64,000 nt of DNA, taken from positions 96,474,001 to 96,538,000 of the forward strand of contig NC_086107.1 in assembly GCF_963921235.1 (NCBI RefSeq), given 5' to 3'. Position numbers and translations under genes: made by a program. The notes under the pieces are model-generated. The model searched no databases, was not told the DNA's origin, and worked only from the letters and a program-made list of their open reading frames with translations. Shown piece by piece: positions 1,738 through 63,015 of the stretch. How positions within the stretch are numbered: position 1 is the stretch's first letter; every line of letters begins with the position of its first letter. The DNA is from Mobula hypostoma. Lineage: Eukaryota.

Positions 1738-3447
1738 GTGAAGAACCTTTACTGTGTCCAAAACTTCACTGCTAAGGGCTTTTTCAATGTCACCTTCAAG
1801 TATATGGTGGGATGGTTGACATTGCTGTGGAACTTTTAGGAGAAAGGGAGAACTAGGTGCCGTTGTGATTTCTGAAGGTGCAGCCACTCTTGTCTGTCCC
1901 CTCCCAGAGGACCGTGTGATTGCAGTGCACATGTTCAAACCACAGGTGCTCGTAATGGATGTCCTCACCTTCGTGACCCATTACACCGAGGGAGCAGAAA
2001 ACTGCGTAGACATCAAGGACACGTTCAGGATTTGGACAAGTAAGCGCCAGGTGATGGTCAAGCTGAGGGTGAACGTGAGTATTGCCATCATCCACCCTCT
2101 CTCATTCTTCACTGTCAGAGGGAACGACAGTTACTTGCCTCATGTCGGTCAACCCAGGCTGTGCTGTAACTGCAACTCGTCTGGACGTGTCACGGCCCAG
2201 TGCAGTGCGGCAACCTGCAAGAACTACAGAACAGGAAGGCCACAGGACAAAGGACTGCAGGGGAAGCAAAACCTGTGTGGAGAGGCAGGCCACCTCTCTA
2301 CAGTCTGGCCAAAACATGCCGGCATCTACACACAAGCAACTAGAGGGGGAGCCGGAACTGAGAACCCCCAGAGAAACGGTGACACCCCCACTAGCAGCAC
2401 AGCGGCCTTAGCCGAGACTGAACTGGGGAAAGGCCGACTGCCTCGAGCTCCCAGCCCTCAGCTTTGAGACTCCAGGCCCTTCCCCAAGTGGAGGAGGGGA
2501 AAGCAGATGAGCAAGAGAATGAATGGCCGGTGGTGAAAAGGAGAATTCCCAGAGAGACAACAGACTGCTCGGAGTAAAAGGAATGGGAAGAGAAGGGCAG
2601 GGCAGCGGAAAGATGCCAGCAACCTCTCATCGTCAGAGGGTGAAGCAACAGTGGGAAATTGATAACACAGGCAGAGGAAGTGCAGAAAGGGGAAGGCAAA
2701 GAGAAAGAGAGCCAACAGGCACAAATGGGTGAGGAACAAATTCTGCCAGCCTCTTCTTATCCACGGGAGACTGAGGGCAGCACAGGAACCATTCACCCCC
2801 CAGCTCAGTCCAGGAGACCGTGAGCAGAACGGAAACTGCCATCACCACCCCCCAGTTTAGGGCTGATGAACTAGAATTCTAATTTCAGAACACAGTTATG
2901 GAGACAAAACTGCCAGCCACTGGCCATGCACAGTGTGAAGAGTGTCAATGCCTTGCAATGCCTTACCAAGTTCAAGGCTGACGTGATAGTCTTACAGAAG
3001 TATGGGCTACCATACCTCTTCAACTACCGGAGGTGGTCACGATGGTGGTCCCACCGTCTGTCTGTGTGGTCGGGGCAATGACAGTCACACTCCTGATCTG
3101 GGGATTCTGCTGCAGGGAGGCAATTTTTCAGTCATAGGAGTCAAAGCAATGGTTGGGGTCATCTCGTGGCATAAGTTCTGTACCGTAACACTCCACTGTG
3201 GTTAATTAATATGTATACCTCACCCATGCAGAGCAAGCAACTGGCTGTTCTCCAGCAGCTCCCACTGGTGACATCCTAGCCAGTCATTCTGGCTGGTGAC
3301 TTTAACTGCACTATACTGTCGCTGGGAGATCCAGCAGACTGGACAGAACCTCCAGATTCCCGGTGGAAGTGGTTAAAAAAAGCCATATTGGGTGATCTCT
3401 TCAGCATCCCTGCAGGTGGAACACATCCACAACCCATCTGGTTCAGG

Positions 3448-3625
3448 ACACACACAAAGAGATAGAGGAACTCAGCAGATTTGATCTGGGTCCTGATGAA
3501 GGGTCTCGGCCCAAAATATCGACTGTTTATTACAATTTCCAAACATGCTATCTGACCTGCTGAGTTCCTCCAGTGTTTTGTGTGTGTTGTTCTGCATTTC
3601 CAGCATCTGTAGGATCTCTTCCTTT
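3448..3625 (+). mobile_element. Short Penelope pLTR derivative with inverted head and decayed hammerhead
   Basis: gtcctgatgaagggtctcggcccaaaatatcgactg, preceded by an inverted tail fragment (gaggaactcagcag). Confidence 0.7.
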
Positions 3626-3964
3626 CAGGACAGGTCTGTTTTGTCATTAAATATTCTGTCCAGTTTTATATTCATGGCCTATAGCTAATGAAACTAATTA
3701 ATGGCTTATTGTTATCTTAGTGTTAAAACATCGAATCAGAGTTGGAGGGGACACTCCATTTCTCTCTCATGAACGATTGCTGTGTGATTAAAGACTTTTA
3801 TATTTCCCAATTACAGTATCTGCAAGGCTCCACTTCAGCACAGAGATGGATGCAAGGGTACATGTCCCAGTTCATCACCAGCAGCTGTGATGGAGGGCTC
3901 TCTGATCTGCGGACTGTTCCCAGGTACATACACAGACAGACACACGCTCACTCTCACCTCACTC

Positions 3965-4190
3965 TCACTCACTTGTACTGTTCTTCAGTTGTCCATCGAA
4001 ATCCAATGATGATGTCCACTCCTTTAACGGTGAGATCTTTGATGACTATACAGTCCTATCCTGGACCCACAAGCTCTATTGCAGGTGGGACATGTATATG
4101 TGGTAATGGTGGCAACCATGGCTGCACTTCTCCTGGCTCTCTTCTGCTGTCTTGTGGTTGTTCTTTCCATCTCCAGAATACGAGCCCCAT
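3965..4190 (-). mobile_element. RTE-clade LINE 3' end
   Basis: C-terminal YTCPTCNRACGSRIGLYSHQRSHR* C2H2-like motif typical of RTE/BovB-like ORFs. Confidence 0.75.

Positions 4191-4191
<1 letters not shown>

Positions 4192-4240
<49 letters not shown>
4192..4240. repeat. (CA)n microsatellite
   Basis: Direct observation, about 24 CA units. Confidence 0.98.
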
Positions 4241-4241
<1 letters not shown>

Positions 4242-4615
4242 AGATACTCAATTCAGAACAATTCCCTAATTCCCTTTGGTCTTACAAGGAAAGAGTTAAG
4301 TTTTATTCCTCTTCAGTTCATGCTAAAATGTGTAAATCAAACGATGTCAGCTTGGAATGTGGCGATGGCTAACTTCCCCTCTAATTGCCCAATGTTTTGT
4401 CTCTATTTTGAATACACATCATTAAGATTAGATACTCTTGAAGAATGTTTTCCTCCTTTCACTCCAGCTGTCTCTATTTCTAATTGGGTTTGTCTTGGCC
4501 AAAGGTTGCATGAGATAGAAAATGGTCTTTAAGGGTATAAAATTGGGCAAATTCTTTATGCAAGAGGGGAATCTTCTCTTTGGCTGGAGTGTGACTAGTC
4601 CTCAGAGCTAGAGCT

Positions 4616-4655
4616 GTTGCTTCTTGGCCTTTTGGCAAAGATTGAGTCTAATATC
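4616..4655 (+). pseudogene. U2 snRNA 5' fragment (nt 1-40) fused to the 5' end of Tx1 copy B
   Basis: GTTGCTTCTTGGCCTTTTGGCAAAGATTGAGTCTAATATC vs vertebrate U2 ATCGCTTCTCGGCCTTTTGGCTAAGATCAAGTGTAGTATC, 32/40 identical with no gaps. Similarity stops at nt 40. Confidence 0.85.
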
Positions 4656-7272
4656 GTGGTGGACTTGCTTTGATCAGGAGGGTTGAGAAGAGGTTAACTG
4701 ATGCAGGGCTGGATCCTCATGGGGACTGGGTAACTGATCTAACACCCCTTTCCAGTAATCGTCACCCAGCCAGGATAGCGGCATCCAACGGAGGATCTGG
4801 GATCCAAAACGGTGTCAGGGTGGCAGTGGAGGATCTCGCTGAGGGAAACCCGTTCAACAGGAACTGCTTCACTCGGAAGGTTTTACTGGACTGCTGCAAG
4901 TTCGGGGCTGGGGTGGGGACATTTATTGTGCTCAAAACTTCCATGGCTCCTTTGACGTAACCTTCACATGCGTGTTGCGATGGCAGAAGTTCCTGCAGGA
5001 TATTCGGCACAAGAGGAACAAGGCACCACTGACGCGGCTGAAAGCACGGCCTCTCTTCACCATCGCAATCCGCAAAGATCGTGTGATAACATTGGGCATG
5101 TTCAACCCACATGTGCCCATTGTGGATGTCCTCATCTTCCTTGTCTGTTACACCGAGGGCATGGGAAACTGTGTAGATGTTAAGAACATGCATGGGATCT
5201 GAACAAGCAAACACCAAGTCAAGGTCAAGCTAAGGGTGGATTCCAATGGTTCCACCATCTTCCCTCCCTCAGTTTTCACCAGTGGGGTGAACCGTGGCTA
5301 CATGGTCTACGCTGGGCAACCCAGGGATTGCCGGAACTGCCACAGGGTGGGACACCTCGCGGCCCAGTACAAGGCCACATCTCGTAACCTGAACAGAGGC
5401 CAAGACTTGCAACCTCTGCGGACAGGCAGGCTACCTGTACAGGGCCTGTACGAGACGTCCCAGCACCTATGCACGGCTGACCAGAGGAGGTGCTGGTACT
5501 GAAAGGGCCCCGGCAGAGGTGGGTGCACCCACCACCCGTGCACAGGCAGCGCCCAGCATAGAATAAACTTCCACGACAGAGGAAGGACCAACACCTCCAC
5601 CCAGAACCCCCAGGGCCCCCCACAAGATAAGGAGGAGCCCATGGAGGAGGAAAGAGCCGAGGGAGAAGAAGGTTGGAACGTGGTGATGTGGAAATGGGAG
5701 AAGTCCCAAAAGGTTGCGCCCAAACAACGAAGGGCAGAGGAACAGAGGGGAATTCCAAGAAAAGGGTGGGGGAGCACACAGCTTCCGGCCTCCTGTCCGC
5801 GTCGGAGGAGAAAGGCATTGGAGGAGGCCAGCAGCACGGACAGAGGAAGCGGCTGGCAAAAAGAGCTGAGAGAACAGAGGGTGGCATAGGTCTACTGGCC
5901 AGCCCCCAGGTACAGGAGGAGAGCAGCAAGGAATCAGCCGATCCCTGCTCTGGGAATCGTAAAGAGGCCTCTGGCTCCTAGCTCCAGGAGACCAGGAGTA
6001 GAAAGGAAGCCAACAACCCCCCAGCTTCGGGAAACCGGGAGCAGCGAGAAGATCACCAACACCCAGGAGCAGAACTTGCGTCTGGCGCACTGCAGCCAGA
6101 AGGGGAGGCGAATCCAGCAGAGAACAACCCCCCCAGGCTCAGAACCAGAACTGCCACACCCGGGGGAGGATTACCCGCAGTACCTGAGCCCACAGAAGGT
6201 GAAGGACTTCACAAAGGCGGTGGGCATGAAGGCTCAGGACTGCGAAGGTGAGGACGGAGAGCAGCCGAAATAAAGTTTGAACTATGATGGACCTTAAACT
6301 GGCTGCACTAAATGTGCGCAGTTTGAAGTGTACTGGGCGATGCGTCAGCGCACTCCAGTACTTGAACAATGTTAAAGTAAATTTGACTTTCCTGCAGGAC
6401 TGCGTACTACCACACCTCTGCAACTACCGAAGGTGCTTGCAGTGGTGGCCCCAGGGTCTGTCGGTGTGATCAGAGGGGCAATGATTGTCATGTTTCCGGC
6501 CTGGGGATTATGCTACGGGGAGGCAACTTCTCAATCACCCAAGTTGAAGAGGTGGTTGCGGGTGCCTCACCAACAGGCACCAGGACCTCGCCTGGCTGGC
6601 GGTGAGAGGGGCCCTCCCAGTCAGAGCCCTCCTGTACACCCGGAACGTCGTCTCCGCACCCCACTGCCCACGGGAGGACTGCAGTGAGGAGGAGTCTGTG
6701 ACCCACCTCTTTGCACACTGTCAGTTCGCAAAGAGGGTGTGGAGGAGGATGGACGGGCTAGTGTCATGTTTCATCCCCAGCAGCTGCGTAACAGAGGACT
6801 CTCTGATCTACGGGCTGTTCCCAGGGACGCACACGGAGACCAACATCTGGTGCTGCTGGCAGATCATCAACTTGGTGAAAGATGCTCTTTGGTCGGCCCG
6901 TAACTTGATGATCTACCAGCACATGGAGATGTCCGTGGGAGAATGCTGCCGACTGGCACATTCTCGGCTGTAGGAGTACGTGCTGAGGGACGCACTGAAA
7001 CTCGGTGCAGCCACCGCAAGGGCCCGGTGGGGAAGGACCACAGTATTGGTTTCTCCACCCGTGGGAGTGGGAGGGGTCGGGAGGCGGAGGAACCCCCTGA
7101 ACTATGGTGTATTGTATAATATGAACCACCAGAGTGCCACGTGAGAGACAGAATTATTTTACACTGTATGGAAAGTATTGACAATGGCTGTAAAGAACGT
7201 AGAGTTATTGAATGGTTTATTGTTGTAAGTACTTTTTAAAATTGTGGATGAAGTTTATGTTTTTAAAGCAAA
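4656..7272 (+). mobile_element. Tx1-clade (Keno-like) retrotransposon copy B: ORF1, APE N-terminus, then directly the zf-RVT C-terminus and 3' UTR (RT missing)
   Basis: ORF1 pieces 4670-5502 (GQPRDCRNCHRVGHLAAQ knuckle). ORF2 start at 6284 (LAALNVRSLK..FLQD). 6602-6973 CPREDCSEEESVTHLFAHCQFAKRVW. A/T-rich 3' end. Confidence 0.85.
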
Positions 7273-7479
7273 GAGCTAATGGTAAAGCTAGAAGTAGAGC
7301 TGGAGGGAGGTGGATCACTATTCTTTTGTCTCTTTTCCTCTATAACTTGATTAAAAGTTTATTTTTGAATATCATACATGTTGATTGCTTCCTTTGTTTG
7401 TGAATGTCTCTTGCTGCTGAATCAGGAAAGGACCAGTCATGAAACTTTAAAAAATTTTCATTGTAAGTCTATCCAAAAC

Positions 7480-7868
7480 TTGTTGCTCTCGCAGCACACT
7501 GAGATGTCCGTGAGGGAATGCTCTTGCCTGGTACTTTCCACACTGCAGGGGTACGTGGCTGAGGAACACACTGAAACACAGTGCGGCCAACTCAAGGGCT
7601 TGGAGGGGAAGGACCTCTGTACCTGCGCTCTTTCCACTACCGTACACAGAGGGTCTGGGTGGGGTGGGGCAGCCCCTTCTACAGTCAAAGGATTCATCAG
7701 CCTAGGGAGTGACGGGAGCAGCAATGGAGTTGGGTTTGTTTATGTCTTCCTATCACTAAAGTTTACACCCACTGAATGAACCATCCAAGAATGTAAATGT
7801 TTCATTTGAAATTTCTTCATTTGTATGCATTTTTGATTACCAATAAAGACTATTTTGGAATTTAAAAA
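7480..7868 (+). mobile_element. Older Tx1 3' end fragment
   Basis: QHTEMSVRECSCL parallels QHMEMSVGECCRL at ~6920. Ends aataaagactattttggaatttaaaaa. Confidence 0.75.
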
Positions 7869-7923: not shown

Positions 7924-9262
7924 AATCATGAAATTCAGGGGGGAAGACAACAAGGATTCTGTGGCCAAGTGGGCCTGACCAGAGTTTAACCTGCTGACAC
8001 AGAGGTGGATCCAAATGCTGAATGGGAAACCAGTCCAACAGCTCCTTCCAGCACATAACCTGTTATAACCAGCTCCATCGTGATGGCAGTAGTGGTAAAC
8101 ACCTCAGGGGGAGAACAAGGGATTCACAACACTGGCAGGGGGATTGTAAAGGATCTGAATGAAGGGAACCCTTGACACAGAACCTCTTCATCAGCAAGGT
8201 CTAGCAGAAAGCTGCTGATTTGAGACAAACAATATCTACAGGACTTCACAAGTCCCAGCTAGAATCATAGAGTAATACAGAAGAAACAGGCCATTCAGCC
8301 CAACTGGTCCTTGCTGACCACAACATCCTCCCTGTTAGTCACAGTTATCTGTGTTCAGCCCATGTACTGATCTAAATGGGCTGTGAATGTCATGTCAGCA
8401 TCATAGCTGCCAGAGGAAGTGGACAAGTTAGGTCATTCTCGGTGATCGATACCCTCTGTGAAAAGTTAACTCTCAGTTCCGTTAAACTGTCCCCTCTTCT
8501 CTTGTACCTGGCAGGATGGCAGAAGCTGCTGCCGGACGTCCGGGAAAGGGGAATGAAGTGCCACTGTCGCTGCTGAAATCACAGCTACTCTGCACTCTAG
8601 TCACCGAGAAAGAGCATGCAATAATGGTGCCTACAGAACTGTACAAGTCTTAGCACATATATATAACTGGGTGCCCAAGACATTTGCACAGTACTGTATT
8701 TGTCAATGGGGAGTGGAGAGCAAGTTTGTAAATCCGGCGGGAGCAAAGAGTGCTGGGAATGGCGAGGGTGGAGACGTGGGAGGGGTATGGGGGCAAGTGG
8801 CAGAGAAGGATTACCAGTGGTAGGGGGGTGGCATGGGTACAGACACACCCAGCTCTGAGACACCAGGCAAGGTCATTTGATTCTAAACAATTGATCATTA
8901 CAGAATGTCTCTCTTCCCACTCTCTCCTCTCTCCCTTCCCCTTTCCCCAACCATGATTCCCCTCTTCCTGCCCCCTTCCCACTCCCAGTCAACAATGGAG
9001 ACCCGTATCAGAATCATGTTTATCATCACTCACATATATCATGAAATTTGTTTATTTTTTTTGCAGGGGCAGTACAATGCAATACATAGAATTACTACTG
9101 TACTGTGCAAAAGTCTTAGTCCCCCTGGCTATGTACATGTATGTGCATAAGACTTTTGCTCAGAACTGTATGTTCAACCCACGTGCCCATTGTGGATTTC
9201 CTCACCTTCCTGTCTCGTTTCATCAAGGGAGCAGGAACTGCATCCACATCAAGGATCGATAA
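7924..9262 (+). mobile_element. Tx1 copy C: leader and heavily decayed ORF1, interrupted by a CR1 scrap (~8260-8500) and a Tc1-like MITE
   Basis: Leader 7981-8052 is homologous to 1003-1074 and 4689-4755. tgttcaacccacgtgcccattgtgga at 9171 matches copy B at ~5098. Confidence 0.7.
8634..9168. mobile_element. Tc1/mariner-like non-autonomous element with TA TSD; each end is a small TIR palindrome
   Basis: cagtactgtgcaaaagtctt-type TIRs occur four times (8634, ~8677-8697, ~9098-9118, ~9149-9168). Flanked by TA, and Tx1 ORF1 resumes on both sides. Confidence 0.75.
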
Positions 9263-17161: not shown

Positions 17162-17965
17162 AAACAACGGGAATTCTGCAGATGCTGGAAATTCAAGCAA
17201 CAAGTGCTACACATGCCCTTACACTTCCTCCCTTACCACCATTCAGGGCCCCAGACAGTCCTTCCAAGTGAGGCGACACTTCACCTGTGAGTTGGCTGGG
17301 GTGATATACTACGTCCGGTGCTCCTGATGTGGCCTTCTATATATTGGCGAGACCCGACGCAGACTGGGTGACCGCTTTGCTGAACACCTACGCTCTGTCC
17401 GCCAGAGAAAGCAGGATCTCCCAGTGGCCACACATTTTAATTCCACATCCCATTCCCATTCTGACATGTCTATCCGTGGCCTCCTCTACTGTAAAGATGA
17501 AGCCACACTCAGGTTGGAGGAACAACACCTTATATTCCGTCTGGGTAGCCTCCAACCTGATGGCATGAACATTGACTTCTCTAACTTCCGCTAATGCCAC
17601 ACCTCCCCCTCGTACCCCATCCGTTATTTATTTTTATACACACATTCTTTCTCTCACTCTCCTTTCTCTCCCTCTGTCCCTCTGACAAGGGTCCCCCCCC
17701 CTGTCTTTCTCCCTGGGCCTCCTGTCCCATGATCCCCTCATATCCCCTTTGCCAATCACCTGTCCAGCTCTTGGCTCCATCCCTCCCCCTCCTGTCTTCT
17801 CCTATCATTTTGGATCTCCCCCTCACCCTCCCACTTTCAAATCTCTTACTAGCTCTTCCTTCAGTTAGTCCTGACGAAGGGTCTTGGCCTGAAACGTTGA
17901 CTGTACCTCTTCCTAGAGATGCTGCCTGGCCTGCTGCGTTCACCAGCAACTTTGATGTGTGTTGC
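17162..17965 (+). mobile_element. Penelope-like element: inverted pLTR piece, GIY-YIG endonuclease region and pLTR
   Basis: CYTCPYTSS..FTCELAGVIYYVRCS*CGLLYIGETRRRLGDRFAEHL..VATHFN..RLEEQHLIFRLGSLQPDGMN. 17162-17200 is an inverted copy of the tail. Confidence 0.92.
17867..17902 (+). ncRNA. Minimal hammerhead ribozyme
   Basis: AGTC-CTGACGA-AGGGTCTTGGCCT-GAAA-CGTT-GACT. Confidence 0.75.
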
Positions 17966-27700: not shown

Positions 27701-28184
27701 CTAATCAAATCTTACAGCGACGTTGGATCAGTTGGGTGTGTGACGGAAAAGCGTGGCCTCATCCTTTGTGTTCTATGCATGGGGTTTTGTCGTCAAGTCC
27801 CATGCTTGATATTTGGTCCCCAGTTAATGGTTGTTTCAGATATTAAACAGAGTTTTAAAAACAGAATAACCAAAGTAAACCTTATTTATAATAAAAATAT
27901 TCTCACAAGTGCACCAAGCAATGCCTTTTCATTCTCTACACTGATAGTCAATGCTTTCAGCCCTGTTCTATTACATTCCTACACATCCATTGCACTGATC
28001 CCACTCATGTCCCCCCCCCAGGGATAGTATACAACTGCAATAATGAATGGGCTTCCTCCCCCAACCAGGCCCCTCCCTCTCCAATAGAAGACATCCCCTA
28101 CACTGTGGTCCCTCCCCACCGAGCCCTTGCACCAAGCTTCACCGCGTCCCTCGGCAGGTACTCCTGCAGCGTGGGACTTGTTAC

Positions 28185-29579
28185 ACATTTTAATTCCACG
28201 TCCCATTCCCATTCTGATATGTCAATCCATGGCCTCCTCTACTGTAAGGATGAAGCCACACTGTTACATAACCGTCAACAATGAATATCAATTGAGATAG
28301 GTTATATAAAAACAACCAAACATTTATTAAACACGGATAAACGATAAGGTAAAAAAAACAAATGAAAACTTTAACCGGAAGTTATCCGCTATGCAGCCAT
28401 TCAACAAATCAACACTCGGCACTGATTCTTAAAGAGTTAAATGCAAAAACAGTTCTTAAAGATATAGTTCTTAAAATGGTAAATTCGAAAGTCCAACAGA
28501 TTTACACGTTCAATTGGGAGAGACTTCTCTGGAGAAGGATTTCTTCACAGACGTAACTTTCCAGCTGGTTCTGTCCACAGGATTCACGATGCCGAAAATA
28601 AGCAGTTTAAAACAACTGACCTTAAATTCTTTTAGAGAGAGAGAGCAAACCGTTGCATGAACTCCTTGCTCTTTTTGGCAAGAGTTATCCTCGATGCAGG
28701 TTGCTACTCCGCCAACGAAGACTCAATAAGGTTGATCCTTTGTTAAACTGCCAAACGATGCTGACTCCTCTCGATCCTTCGATCCTGCACTTCGATAAAT
28801 TCTTCACTCTCCCTTCTACTGTTGGAATTGAGTAAATCAACACATCTAGCCAAAAATTTCCAGTCGAATAATACCGTATTTTGCAATAGAATGCAATACT
28901 CCATTTTAAAAATGAAACTGTATCACAAGAACAAACATGCAACAGAAACGGAGACACAGCACATTCTACCTGGAAATCTACAAACTAAAAAAACCCTACT
29001 GCGTCACCTGGGTTGACCCTTATATACCCGTGGTGCACATGTCATCACGTGACCTCACATCAGCGGGAAAATCACATCAGGTGACCTCCAAGAGACCATT
29101 ACATCATTCTTGCAAAAAAACAGATCTCCTTGAGCATGTAACCACACTCAGGTTGGAGGAACAACATCTTATATTCCGTCTGGGTAGCCTCCACCCTGAT
29201 GGCATGAACATTGACTTCTCAAACTTCTGCTAACACCCCTCCTCCCCTTCTTACCCCATCCCCTATTTGAATTATTTATTCATTTATTCTGCCCCCGCCT
29301 TTTTTCTCTCTCTCTTTCCCTCTCACAATCACTCCTTGCCTGCTCGCCATCTTCCTTTGGTGCTCCCCTCTCCCTTTCTTTCTCCCGTGTCTCCAGCTTT
29401 GTTTCCCTTTTGCCAATCAACTTTCCAGCTCTTAGCTTTATCTCTCCCCCTCCTGTCTTCTCCTATCATTTTGGATCTCCCCCCCCCCACCTTTCAAATC
29501 TCTTACTATCTCTTCTTTCAGTTAGTCCTGACGAAGGGTATTGGCCCGAAACGTTGACTGTACCTCTTCCTAGAGATGC
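28185..29579 (+). mobile_element. Penelope 3' fragment split by a solo LTR; hammerhead at 29524-29559
   Basis: THFNSTSHSHSDMS..DEAT|LRLEEQHLIFRLGSLHPDGMN. AGTC-CTGACGA-AGGGTATTGGCCC-GAAA-CGTT-GACT. Confidence 0.88.
28262..29143 (-). mobile_element. Solo LTR (~880 bp) with terminal inverted repeats TGTTACAT/ATGTAAC and TSD (C)ACAC
   Basis: Cleanly interrupts the Penelope sequence gaagccacac|tcagg. Minus-strand TATATAA at ~29020 and AATAAA at ~28323. Confidence 0.8.
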
Positions 29580-30060
29580 ATTGTTCCACCAATCGTCTGG
29601 GCGGGGGTGAAGGCTATCGGCGCAAGGAGATACATTCAACCGGCCATCTCCTTCAGACCACGCAGTCAGTGCCTCCTGAGCAATGCCTCACCGGATGCCT
29701 CCCGCGTTTACCCCTCACATGCCTGCTACTTTCATTTCCCCAACCCTTCTGCTATGTCCTGATGCCCCAAATGTCGACTGCTTCTTTTTCCTTCCATGAA
29801 TGTTGCCTTACCTGCTGAGTTCCTGCTCGGAGTCTGTTGATCCAGGTTTCAGTGTGTTTTGTGTCTGCATTATCTATTATTGATTCTGCAATGTTGGTGG
29901 AAATTGGAATTCTATGTTGTGTTTAATCAGCCTGATCCGCGTGTTACGATTAATTCTATAATGAGACCGATGTTCAGTGGAACTTCTGTCACTTTTGCTT
30001 GTGTGTTAACGGCGACCTCTGCTGGTGACGAATGCCAAACCGCACCTTGTCTTCCTCTGT

Positions 30061-30465
30061 GTGATGATGGAGACATCTATTGGTGGAAATATGAACTGCA
30101 CATTGCGTTTGTCTTTGTGCTGATGGGGACATCTATTGGTGGAAATGTGAACTGCATGTTGCGTTTGTCTTCGTGATGACGGGGACATCTATTGGTGGAA
30201 ATGTGAACTGCACATTGCGATTGTCATTGTGATGACGGGGACATCTATTGGTGGAAATGTGAACTGCATGTTGCGTTTGTCTTCGTGATGACGGGGACAT
30301 CTATTGGTGGAAATTTGAACTGCACGTTGCGTTTGTCTTCGTGATGACGGGGACATCTATTGGTGGAAATTTGAACTGCACGTTGCGTTTGTCTTCGTGA
30401 TGACGGCGACATCTATTCTTTGTGATGATGGAGACACCGGTTGGTGGAATGTGCAACTGCAATTC
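30061..30465. repeat. 56-bp minisatellite, about 6.5 good copies plus degenerate flanking units
   Basis: Unit gtgatgacggggacatctattggtggaaat(g/t)tgaactgcacgttgcgtttgtcttc. Confidence 0.95.
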
Positions 30466-31611
30466 ATTCTTACTCGTGTTCACAGGGACATCTTTTGGGA
30501 TCAACTGGAAAGGCATCTTGCTGTTGATAGCATTTATCGTGATATCTGTTGGGATACAGTGAAACTATGGGTGTGTTTGACCATCACACAGGAGAATATA
30601 GAAAGTAGTCTATGCCTTTGTTTCTTCCACAAAAGTGCACGATGAAACACTTTCCCTTTAGTATTGTGACAGGGTCTTGAATTACCCCTATGAATTGTGT
30701 TCGATTACCCCTACGAACTGTGCTTTTGAAAAGAGAGAGAGAGAGTTATTTAACACCAACATGTGTTTTTGAAAAGAGAGAGTGAGAGAGACGAAGACTG
30801 CTCACAGATTGTTTATACTTTCTTCAAGGACATCGCCTGCTTGTACTCTTCCACAGACAGAGATGGGTGGAGTTATTTGAGAGACAGTTGGTGCTCAGCA
30901 TGGGAAGATAAAATAGGAGATCAGATAATATAGATGTCAGGCACATGTTTTGGACACTGAATGAGCTTTGTTGTTCCCGCAGGAAAAGTGGGTTTTTGGA
31001 GCATCGATCAGGCAGATGGATCAGTGGCTCTTGCAGTGAAAAGGAAAGGGGTTGACCGGTGGGGAGTTGTTCATGTGTCCACCCTTGCCTGGGTGATAGC
31101 TTCACCACAGAAGACTGGTCCCCTTTGTTGTGGCCACAGTCGGTGACTTTTAGAAGATTTCAGAGGACGAGAAGATTGACGGCGTCAGCTCACCTGAAGA
31201 CTCAAATCTCCCCCTCTCTCTCTCTCTCCCCATCACTACTCAACTCAATACCACGAACTGAACTGAACTGAACTTTACTCATCATCGTAAGACTGTATCT
31301 TTTTACCCGTAGACTTAAGGAAGCTTGGTTTTTCATACATTTATTTCCACACTTACTGATATACTTACTTATACATATAAAATCATTGCTAACCTGTTTG
31401 ATTTATCTACATTTATATTACTGTATTGCATAGTTACTAATAAATATTATTAGTTAATAGCAATACTGGACTCCAAAGTGTTTTCTATTTCTGCTGGTTC
31501 TTTATTCCCGTCACGAGGTATGTGACAAAATTGGGGCCTGCGTCCGTGATTGAACAAATTGTGGGAGGCTTGTTTGAATTGATTGGGGAAAATCCCTTTT
31601 GATTTGGTTGT

Positions 31612-35434: not shown

Positions 35435-36699
35435 CAATATTATAACTGATCGGTTATCCAGATATTAAGTTGGAAATTGTACACGTTTTTGCTCTATCAT
35501 TTGATGATCATACATGTATTGTTTCAAACTCTGTAATTTACATTTCAACTAAAAAAAACTTTTGCCTTCATCAAAAATTTCTTGTTCTGAAGAAAGGGGG
35601 TGTAACGGGGTCCTGAATTACCGCTATAAATTGCGCTCGATTACCCCTATGAACTGTGCTTTTGAAAGGAGAGAGAGAGAGAGTTATTTAACACCGACAC
35701 GTTTTTGAAAAGAGAGAGAGAGAGAGAGATGAAGACTGCTGACAGATTGTTTATATTTTCTTCAAGGACATCGCCTGCTTGTACTCTTCCACAGACAGAG
35801 ATGGGTGGAGTTATTTGAGAGACAATTGGTGCTCAGCACGGGAAGATAAAATAGGAGGTCAGATGATATAGACGTCAGGCACATGTTTTGGACACTGAAT
35901 GAGCTTTGTTGTGCCCGCAGGAAAAGTGGGTTTTTGGAGGATCGATCAGGCAGATGGATCAGTGGCTCTTGCAGTGAAAAGAAAAGGCAGTGACTGGTGG
36001 GGAGTTGTCCATGTGTCCACTTTTGCCTGGGTGATAGCTCCACCACAGAAAACCAGTCCTCTTTGTTGTGGTCACAGTCAGTGACTCTTAAATGATTTCG
36101 GAGGACGACGAGAAGATCGATGGCACCAGCTCACCTGAAGACTCAAATCTCTCTCTCTCTCTCCATCACTACTCAACTCAATACCACGAACTGAACTGAA
36201 CTGAACTTTACTCATCATCGTAAGACTGTATCTTTTTACCCCTAGACTTAAGGAAGCTTGGTTTTTCATACATACATTTCCACACTTACTGATATACTTA
36301 CTTATATATATAAAATCATTGCTAACCTGTTTGATTTATCTACATTTATATTACTGTATTGCATAGTTTCTAATAAATATTATTAGTTAATAGCAATACT
36401 GGACTCCAAAGTGTTTTCTATTTCTGCTAGTTCTTCCCATCATAGGGTACGTGACAAGTATATAAAGTATATTGATGGTATTTCTACAAAACCATATATA
36501 GTTTATGGAAACATATTTGTGACAATAAGAAGGTTGAGTCGATTGGGCCTTGGAAGAAGAATTCATCAGCTGGGCAGAAGTGGACAGAAGAATGGCCCTG
36601 AAGGTCAGGAAGAATGACTCAGAGTGGCCCGAAATCCCTCCTCCTAACCTCACCTTGGGATGTAGTCAGGGTCTCCGAGCCACCAGAATTATGAAGTGT

Positions 36700-62889: not shown

Positions 62890-63015
62890 AAGTCCTGATG
62901 AAGGGTCTCAGCACAAAACATTGACTGTTTATTCCCTTCCATAGATGCTGCCTGATGTGAGGTTTCTCCAGCATTTTGTGTGTACTGTTTGAGATTGCCA
63001 GTATCTGCAGAATCA
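62890..63015 (+). mobile_element. Degenerate Penelope tail with decayed hammerhead
   Basis: agtcctgatgaagggtctcagcacaaaacattgactg..atagatgctgcctga. Confidence 0.7.

Follow-up and report, generated by a model that had tools for sequence, protein, structure and literature searches.

A decayed Keno-group retrotransposon with a U2 snRNA head outside a U2 gene in Mobula hypostoma, and its likely origin from a U2-driven chimeric RNA

How does a retrotransposon copy that does not lie in a U2 gene come to begin with nucleotides (nt) 1-40 of the U2 small nuclear RNA (snRNA)? The question is raised by an element at positions 4616-7271 of a 64,000-nt stretch of Mobula hypostoma DNA (the window; contig NC_086107.1, here C45, 96,474,001-96,538,000; assembly size 3.48 Gb). 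The element is of Tx1 type and about 2.66 kb long. In our well-supported and probable interpretation it is a decayed copy of the Keno group that derives from a U2-driven chimeric RNA and was inserted off target. A U2-promoter-driven chimeric RNA followed by off-target insertion had been suggested in a first-pass annotation made from the letters of the window alone. The suggestion is upheld by Keno elements that reside in a U2 gene array and carry such a head, and by dispersed copies whose 5' ends lie at U2 +1. As all genome searches scored the best candidates only, every copy number given below is a lower bound. The features of the locus are listed here; "young family" denotes the Keno family that is also resident in the U2 array, ORF stands for open reading frame and UTR for untranslated region.

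4268-4615, no strand assigned: 5' part (about 346 bp) of a host dispersed repeat, F, with 131 candidate copies in the genome
4604-4615, plus strand: upstream target-site duplication, 12 nt, matching 7272-7289 and the F consensus
4616-4655, plus strand: head of U2 snRNA nt 1-40, 32/40 to the genome's own U2, position 1 being G and not A (relatives 32-37/40)
4656-6273, plus strand: leader and decayed ORF1 (Pfam PF23057 and PF23058; tblastn path against a young copy), 60-73% nucleotide identity to the young family
6285-6565, plus strand: start of ORF2, about 93 codons of the endonuclease N-terminus, broken; 80-82% identical to young copies, which run on into the endonuclease
6557-6566, plus strand: junction at which about 2.6 kb (the remaining endonuclease and all of the reverse transcriptase) has been removed, with GCCTC common to both sides
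6566-7090, plus strand: ORF2 C-terminus with zf-RVT (E 8.9e-10) and the first approximately 40 nt of 3' UTR, of young-family type
7091-7271, plus strand: 3' UTR of a different, older type with a degenerate A-rich tail, 57-69% identical to the young family
7272-7289, plus strand: downstream target-site duplication, 16/18 to the upstream flank as kept in the related locus L002
7290-7440, no strand assigned: continuation of host repeat F, aligning with the post-insertion part of eight other F copies

The U2 head and the insertion site

Using the genome's own U2 gene as reference (positions 1501-1540 of locus L020 correspond to nt 1-40), we found 32 matches in an ungapped comparison of the 40 positions of window 4616-4655 with U2 nt 1-40; this head stands directly before the leader and ORF1, just as the first-pass annotation had described it. 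The runner-up 40-mer on either strand of the 64-kb window scored 22. When 40-mers of both strands were scored in 200 block-wise shuffles of the window, none reached 32 and the maximum was 27. Changes of C to T at CpG sites account for two of the eight mismatches, and at head position 1 the window copy has G in place of A. Scored with the whole-U2 model of Rfam, the head obtained 20.3 bits against a cut-off of 46 bits (E 0.49 in a 4-kb search) and is therefore not significant by this measure alone, a low score that is explained by the fact that just 40 nt of U2 remain. The Rfam check of the head thus went against the annotation, whereas the shuffles and the better match in relatives (see below) speak for it. 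No family reached its Rfam gathering score anywhere in the window, and the rest of U2 is therefore absent, in agreement with the annotated lack of U2 sequence behind the 3' end; the matches to SCARNA7, PVT1, snoR60 and mir-583 were all sub-threshold. A (GT)n microsatellite at 4190-4245, directly upstream of repeat F, explains the one to SCARNA7.

A search of the genome with the head and leader (4560-4860) yielded 17 non-self matches of 68-87% identity, five of which reach the head, namely L005 (36/40 matches to U2 nt 1-40), L007 (37/40), L009 (32/40), L016 (32/40) and L002 (35/40). Upstream flanks are unrelated in four of these five, and the fifth, L002, has the host repeat F of the window copy. 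A degraded head (24/40) is found in L008, and the remaining matches are 5'-truncated. Copies of the window type have U2 up to nt 40, then a 13-nt insert and then possibly a diverged U2 nt 41-52, and in L016 and the young family U2 is kept to about nt 50-52. The head is a constant trait of several Keno lineages in this genome, and the window copy is one of very many off-target copies; U2-headed relatives do occur genome-wide, as the annotation's reading implied.

The ends annotated for the element (4616 and 7272) deviate from the true ones by no more than 1 nt. Among the best 40 of the 131 candidates for repeat F, 38 copies (that is, all except the window itself and the flank of L002) are 72-84% identical, and the L002 flank is 91% identical. 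Because F resumes at 7272 with a duplicated junction, and because all eight other F copies that were fetched are uninterrupted through the insertion point, 4616-7271 is a single retrotransposition unit, which lies inside repeat F and not in a U2 gene. The paralogous flank at L002 keeps 18 nt at the duplication, and the upstream duplication of the window copy, with 12 nt, has probably lost 6 nt. Off-target integration, as annotated, is thereby documented by a dispersed repeat as host, a target-site duplication and no U2 downstream. Judged by eye, F has no convincing similarity to U2 in the register of the nick site that could serve as a pseudo-target.

Keno elements in the U2 array and copies elsewhere in the genome

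The U2 gene search (48 matches scored) located 21 U2 genes of identical score at a spacing of 2.73-2.76 kb on C45 (96,119,303-96,190,218), with more diverged U2 copies between 96.02 and 96.24 Mb. The end of the array is about 290 kb away from the window element on the same contig. A protein search with the ORF1 piece of the window (best 150 of 250 candidates scored) found eight matches with open frames of 486-492 amino acids inside the array, on the strand of the U2 genes. One array Keno was read at both ends. Its 5' side consists of U2 promoter sequence identical to that of an uninterrupted gene, followed by U2 nt 1-52 and the element; on its 3' side U2 resumes at nt 39 behind a poly(A), so that the element of about 5.16 kb is bracketed by a 14-bp target duplication (nt 39-52). 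In the portions available of PMC6136364, which cites Kojima and Fujiwara (2004), Keno is described as inserting in U2 genes, and the portions available of PMC4640811 have the downstream U2 start at nt 39, as for Keno. The 3' flank of the array Keno equals this published target. In addition, an unplaced contig has a U2 gene that is split at this site by a 5'-truncated copy of the young family, and the annotated statement that the Keno group targets U2 genes near this position holds for the young family (L084, L046/L079). Keno copies inside U2 arrays had also been anticipated, with U2 from nt 41 onwards as their 3' flank. They were found with a head of U2 nt 1-52, but they belong to a sister lineage of the window copy and their 3' flank begins at nt 39.

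In a dispersed copy of the young family, ORF2 is open over 660 amino acids and contains RVT_1 (E 2.9e-39) and zf-RVT. Its database homologues are endonuclease-reverse transcriptase-zf-RVT proteins of fishes, amphioxus and frogs, which carry no clade names, and the AP-endonuclease domain (PF03372) was seen in these homologues only. Several of the 2.74-kb array units are interrupted by a full-length Keno of about 5.16 kb with an open 486-amino-acid ORF1 (loci L020-L040, L083 and L084). No difference separates six of the array Keno 5' ends over 411 nt (100% identity), pointing to recent activity or to homogenisation. ORF1 matches are also numerous between the array and the window, including a minus-strand series at 96.255-96.276 Mb with a spacing of 5.16 kb.

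For the 5' ends of copies throughout the genome, the head and leader preceded by 48 nt of U2 promoter flank served as query, and the best 40 of 171 candidates were scored. Eight of these 40 have the promoter flank; all eight lie on C45 at 96.15-96.43 Mb, six of them with 100% identity. For the remaining 32 matches, 30 of which are on other contigs, the start is inside the head, and promoter sequence was present in none of these 32 dispersed 5' ends. Their starts lie within 3 nt of U2 nt 1 in 16 cases, at nt 5-12 in seven and at nt 13-38 in nine. Seven dispersed 5' ends were read base by base, giving four complete heads and three that are truncated inside the head. Each of the four complete heads has a G directly upstream of nt 1, where the array copy has a C, and this G is as would be expected if the cap had been copied.

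The 3' side of the young family is very abundant, with 3294 candidates in the genome for the query 6400-7320 (best 40 scored, 39 of them non-self). At 29 dispersed 3' loci the flanks are mutually unrelated, and in seven copies the 5' truncation falls in the last 0.8 kb; at some of these loci target duplications of 8-14 bp can be read. Behind the poly(A), U2 sequence extends over at most about 5 nt in any of the 29. At two of them (L059 and L062) TCTG or TCTGT, corresponding to U2 nt 39-43, stands right after the poly(A), where chance alone would give about 0.1 such cases, a hint that RNAs serving as template extended into the downstream U2 and that priming can start there. Judging from these sequence comparisons, Keno RNAs would begin at the U2 start, carry the upstream U2 fragment and mostly integrate away from U2.

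The following course of events is proposed for the window copy. Keno inserts in U2 genes at nt 38/39 and would not need a promoter of its own, since the external U2 promoter could transcribe the resident element. The resulting RNA would start at U2 +1 with the upstream U2 fragment, which would be nt 1-40 in the lineage of the window copy and nt 1-52 in the young lineage. Reverse transcription of such an RNA to its capped 5' end at a non-U2 site would then produce a copy that keeps the head and has neither promoter nor U2 3' part, and because neither of these would be gained, a new off-target copy would be dead on arrival. The window copy came to lie in a dispersed repeat, flanked by a duplication of up to 18 bp. 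That the U2 promoter drove transcription, and that a master of this copy's own lineage resided in a U2 gene, are steps that we infer from sequence.

Four points weigh against this reading. Firstly, a transcription start at U2 +1 is deduced from DNA copies only. Secondly, among the 17 matches to the head and leader there is no copy with nt 1-40 and the 13-nt insert in a U2 gene, the array copies representing a sister lineage. Thirdly, the G for A at head position 1 is ambiguous, as a cap G is indistinguishable from an A-to-G change. Fourthly, two lineages occupy one identical site in F, which does not fit a simple model of random off-target insertion. The second occupant of that site, L002 (C45:96,028,384), lies 450 kb away on the opposite strand within the extended U2 zone. 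It is a headed Keno at the identical position of the host repeat, and also has G for A at head position 1. The flanks of the window copy and L002 (C45:96,028,331-96,028,615, minus strand) are 93-97% identical over 4268-4499 and 86% over 4500-4599, with no extended paralogy upstream of 4268. The elements themselves are of different lineages, with an identity of just 58-84% in bins of 100 nt; the 5' part of L002 is 80% identical to the young family, that of the window copy 62%. A segmental duplication was considered as a full account of the two loci and rejected, given flanks at 93-97% and elements at just 58-84%. Either one old insertion may have been duplicated, with later conversion of the flank or of the element body, or there may have been two independent insertions at a preferred secondary site; both readings are unsatisfying.

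The junction at 6565 and the loss of the reverse transcriptase

A Keno-group LINE of the Tx1 type has an ORF1 with RNA-binding domains and CCHC knuckles and an ORF2 with AP-endonuclease, reverse transcriptase and zf-RVT. ORF1 of the window copy shows similarity to RNA-binding domains of the ZCCHC3 type (E 1.5e-4 and 2.9e-5, both under the Pfam cut-off) and two degenerate CCHC knuckles, which were read directly from the translation. Its start codon is gone, and the tblastn path against a young copy passes through three or more frame changes and three or more stops. As annotated, no reverse transcriptase is present between the start of ORF2 (6285-6565) and zf-RVT; the short, 62-amino-acid N-terminal piece of ORF2 in the window had no Pfam match. 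The endonuclease reading ends after GGTGGTTGCGGG and resumes just upstream of zf-RVT, placing the junction at 6557-6566, with 5 nt (GCCTC) in both parental sides and 12 further nt of the downstream side gone. Compared with the 5.2-kb full-length form, about 2.6 kb is lacking. In the remainder of ORF2, a TAG stands prematurely at 6971, and the stop codon at 7046-7048 has mutated. The CpG observed/expected ratio amounts to 0.40-0.54 in the element, 0.59 in young copies and 0-0.16 in the flanks. Loss of CpG was discarded as a means of dating the 5' part, since the element's ratio is near that of young copies and far above that of the flanks.

Identity to a young copy is not uniform along the element. 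It amounts to 60% over 4628-5200, 71% over 5201-5900, 73% over 5901-6280 and 80% over 6281-6568, rises to 95-97% over 6566-7090 and is 57-69% over 7091-7272. Similarly, window 4628-6568 aligns to L082 at 66% and 6566-7106 to L079 at 95%. The block 6566-7090 differs by 2.68% from the majority sequence of 32 young copies (33 loci were supplied, and one with a match of less than 480 nt was left out), and the distances of the young copies from their own majority range from 0.39 to 3.45% (median 1.34%). Positions 7091-7271 are 76-86% identical to three short old copies (L101-L103). For this old-type 3' UTR there are 95 candidates in the genome, the best non-self ones at 81-87%.

The first-pass annotation had considered that the window copy might belong to a non-autonomous, snRNA-headed family that lacks the reverse transcriptase and retains ORF1. 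A single target duplication bounds the element, so the deleted form may indeed be what inserted; in addition, ORF1 is already badly broken, and the neighbouring Keno remnant at 1925-3936 has no reverse transcriptase either. The junction at 6565, however, is crossed by none of the 39 non-self matches to 6400-7320, although a sibling with the same structure would score best, and this genome-wide check for recurrence left it unique. L002, L014, L016 and L082 all extend past the junction point, where the window copy departs, and L002, L016 and L082 read there into endonuclease coding sequence; the neighbouring remnant has different breakpoints. Such a family is thus improbable, and this part of the annotation is not retained. 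The loss of the reverse transcriptase is a single event that is private to the window copy or its immediate source. The element is a private mosaic, and no deleted family has to be assumed, because the junction is unshared and its two sides are of different lineages.

Three routes to this mosaic are considered. The loss put a young-lineage block behind a 5' part that is divergent, the most likely mechanisms being repair or gene conversion, or a template switch between RNAs. Repair or gene conversion from a young copy may have taken place after insertion; the low divergence of the block speaks for this when compared with the 18-bp duplication, which shows two mismatches and a gap of 6 bp. Alternatively, the reverse transcriptase may have switched between two Keno RNAs during insertion, or the source element may already have been recombinant; that there is just one target duplication, and that the UTR is of the old type, argues for these two routes. 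The possibility that 6566-7272 is a young 5'-truncated copy nested in an old element was rejected, as the 3' UTR is not of the young type and one duplication brackets 4616-7271.

Other pieces of Keno are present near the element. An older Keno-like remnant upstream (window 1925-2361, 2980-3314 and 3863-3936, plus strand; 65-76% identical to the young family) comprises ORF1, the endonuclease start and a piece of zf-RVT, with a short interspersed nuclear element (SINE) in the gap. Small fragments of 76-80% identity to the young family are found at 7473-7621 (plus strand), 8511-8584 (plus strand) and 28097-28170 (minus strand). The first of these is a 5'-truncated 3' piece located in or beside the rest of host repeat F.

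Other origins of the head, and comparison with known systems

A different source of the head would be a template switch from the RNA of the long interspersed nuclear element (LINE) to free U2 snRNA at the end of reverse transcription. In the portions available of Kojima (2015; PMC4494074), template switching is preferred for the heads of crocodilian elements. Moreover, L009 (1450-1540) has two tandem partial U2 heads (about nt 8-36, then nt 4-40) before the Keno leader, which resemble recurrent 5' addition; this single case suggests that heads may occasionally be re-targeted. However, a jump to mature U2 should copy from the 3' end of that RNA and join it to variable positions of the LINE. Instead, the head always ends where Keno inserts in U2 (nt 40 or nt 52), is joined to one base of the element, and has the identical junction behind the U2 promoter in array copies. 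We regard a template switch as very unlikely here. An on-target insertion into an old U2 gene, whose promoter and 3' part later decayed, could be brought into line with the position of the element on the chromosome of the U2 array, in a zone of about 500 kb that is rich in Keno remnants. It is highly improbable, given that the upstream flank is a dispersed repeat (131 candidates) that resumes after the element with a duplicated junction and that no U2 remnant is detectable in the window by Rfam. A chance match to U2, to which the sub-threshold Rfam score might point, has a negligible probability in the face of zero in 200 shuffles and of a match that is conserved, and better, in relatives.

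Keno is established as a U2-specific LINE of the Tx1 type (Kojima and Fujiwara, 2004, as cited in the available part of PMC6136364). The young family described here likewise inserts in U2 with a 3' flank from nt 39 and has reverse transcriptase and zf-RVT in ORF2. The window copy is homologous to it over its full length and shares head and leader motifs, but is not in a U2 gene. The great majority of copies in this genome are dispersed (3294 candidate 3' ends versus about a dozen copies in the array region), a feature that is not mentioned in the available parts of PMC6136364 and PMC4640811.

Parallels exist in crocodilians, where, according to the part of Kojima (2015; PMC4494074) available, some Tx1-Mar families, which are relatives of Keno, carry a U1 or U2 head without being located in snRNA genes. 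The same text describes SINEU and prefers template switching as the source of the heads; it points out that an internal promoter is lacking in snRNA genes and considers reliance on promoters in the flanks. Tx1-11_Crp and other headed crocodilian Tx1-Mar families are, as there described, Tx1-type LINEs with a U2-derived 5' end outside U2 genes. Tx1-Mar is said in it to target a Mariner transposon, whereas in the present genome U2 genes house the head-bearing masters, and the flanks examined showed no shared secondary target. SINEU likewise has a snRNA-derived 5' head and no internal promoter; however, its members are shorter than 500 bp, non-coding and multi-copy with a shared structure, whereas the window holds a single decayed LINE copy of 2.66 kb whose junction was shared by none of 39 matches, so that an internal structure common to several loci, as in SINEU, was not found. 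The tandem heads of L009 recall the recurrent 5' addition of U2 described for SINEU-1.

Reliance on a host-gene promoter, with target sequence in the transcript, is also known from R2 and other target-specific LINEs. Unlike R2, where a ribozyme removes the upstream rRNA, Keno would keep its upstream U2 fragment on the RNA, and it would be copied into the daughters. Chimeras of the U6-L1 type contain a whole snRNA joined to variable, 5'-truncated positions of the LINE, whereas here U2 nt 1-40 or 1-52 is joined to one fixed base. We found no published account of dispersed U2-headed Keno copies arising from a U2 array; Kojima and Fujiwara (2004) and the Repbase reports lay outside the search and may hold one.

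The window copy itself is ordinary junk DNA, and its context is a clean record of a LINE that borrows an RNA polymerase II snRNA promoter. In this genome, masters in the U2 array can be set beside thousands of daughters at other loci, with which they share a 5' end fixed at U2 +1; this speaks for read-through from the U2 promoter and offers a simple way for snRNA-headed Tx1 elements and SINEs to have arisen. By copy number, a LINE that is called site-specific can be mainly off target. Tentatively, and with somewhat less than even confidence, we propose that Keno behaves here as a "launch-pad" LINE, in which only the few array copies can be transcribed and more than 99% of the progeny would be off-target, promoterless copies that start at U2 +1 and are dead on arrival. 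If so, persistence of the family would rest wholly on rare on-target insertions. Read-through from the U2 promoter, instead of template switching, would then have left the heads seen in dispersed copies and, by analogy, in crocodilian Tx1-Mar and SINEU. Secondary targeting of dispersed heads or of certain repeats might also occur, a possibility that is raised by the identical site of the window copy and L002 and by the tandem head of L009.

Several further repeats were noted in the window. A SINE-like repeat with a conserved core occurs at 1428-1700, 17693-17965, 29401-29579, 3490-3531 and 62892-62933 (families D11, D14, D16 and D20) and is also found beside several U2 loci. A tandem array of about nine copies of a 56-bp unit extends over 29982-30485, with 61-90% identity to the reference over 168-nt frames. 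Finally, direct repeats at 30732-31502 and 35670-36435 (families D6 and D7), about 4.93 kb apart and 94-98% identical, may be the long terminal repeats (LTRs) of an LTR element.

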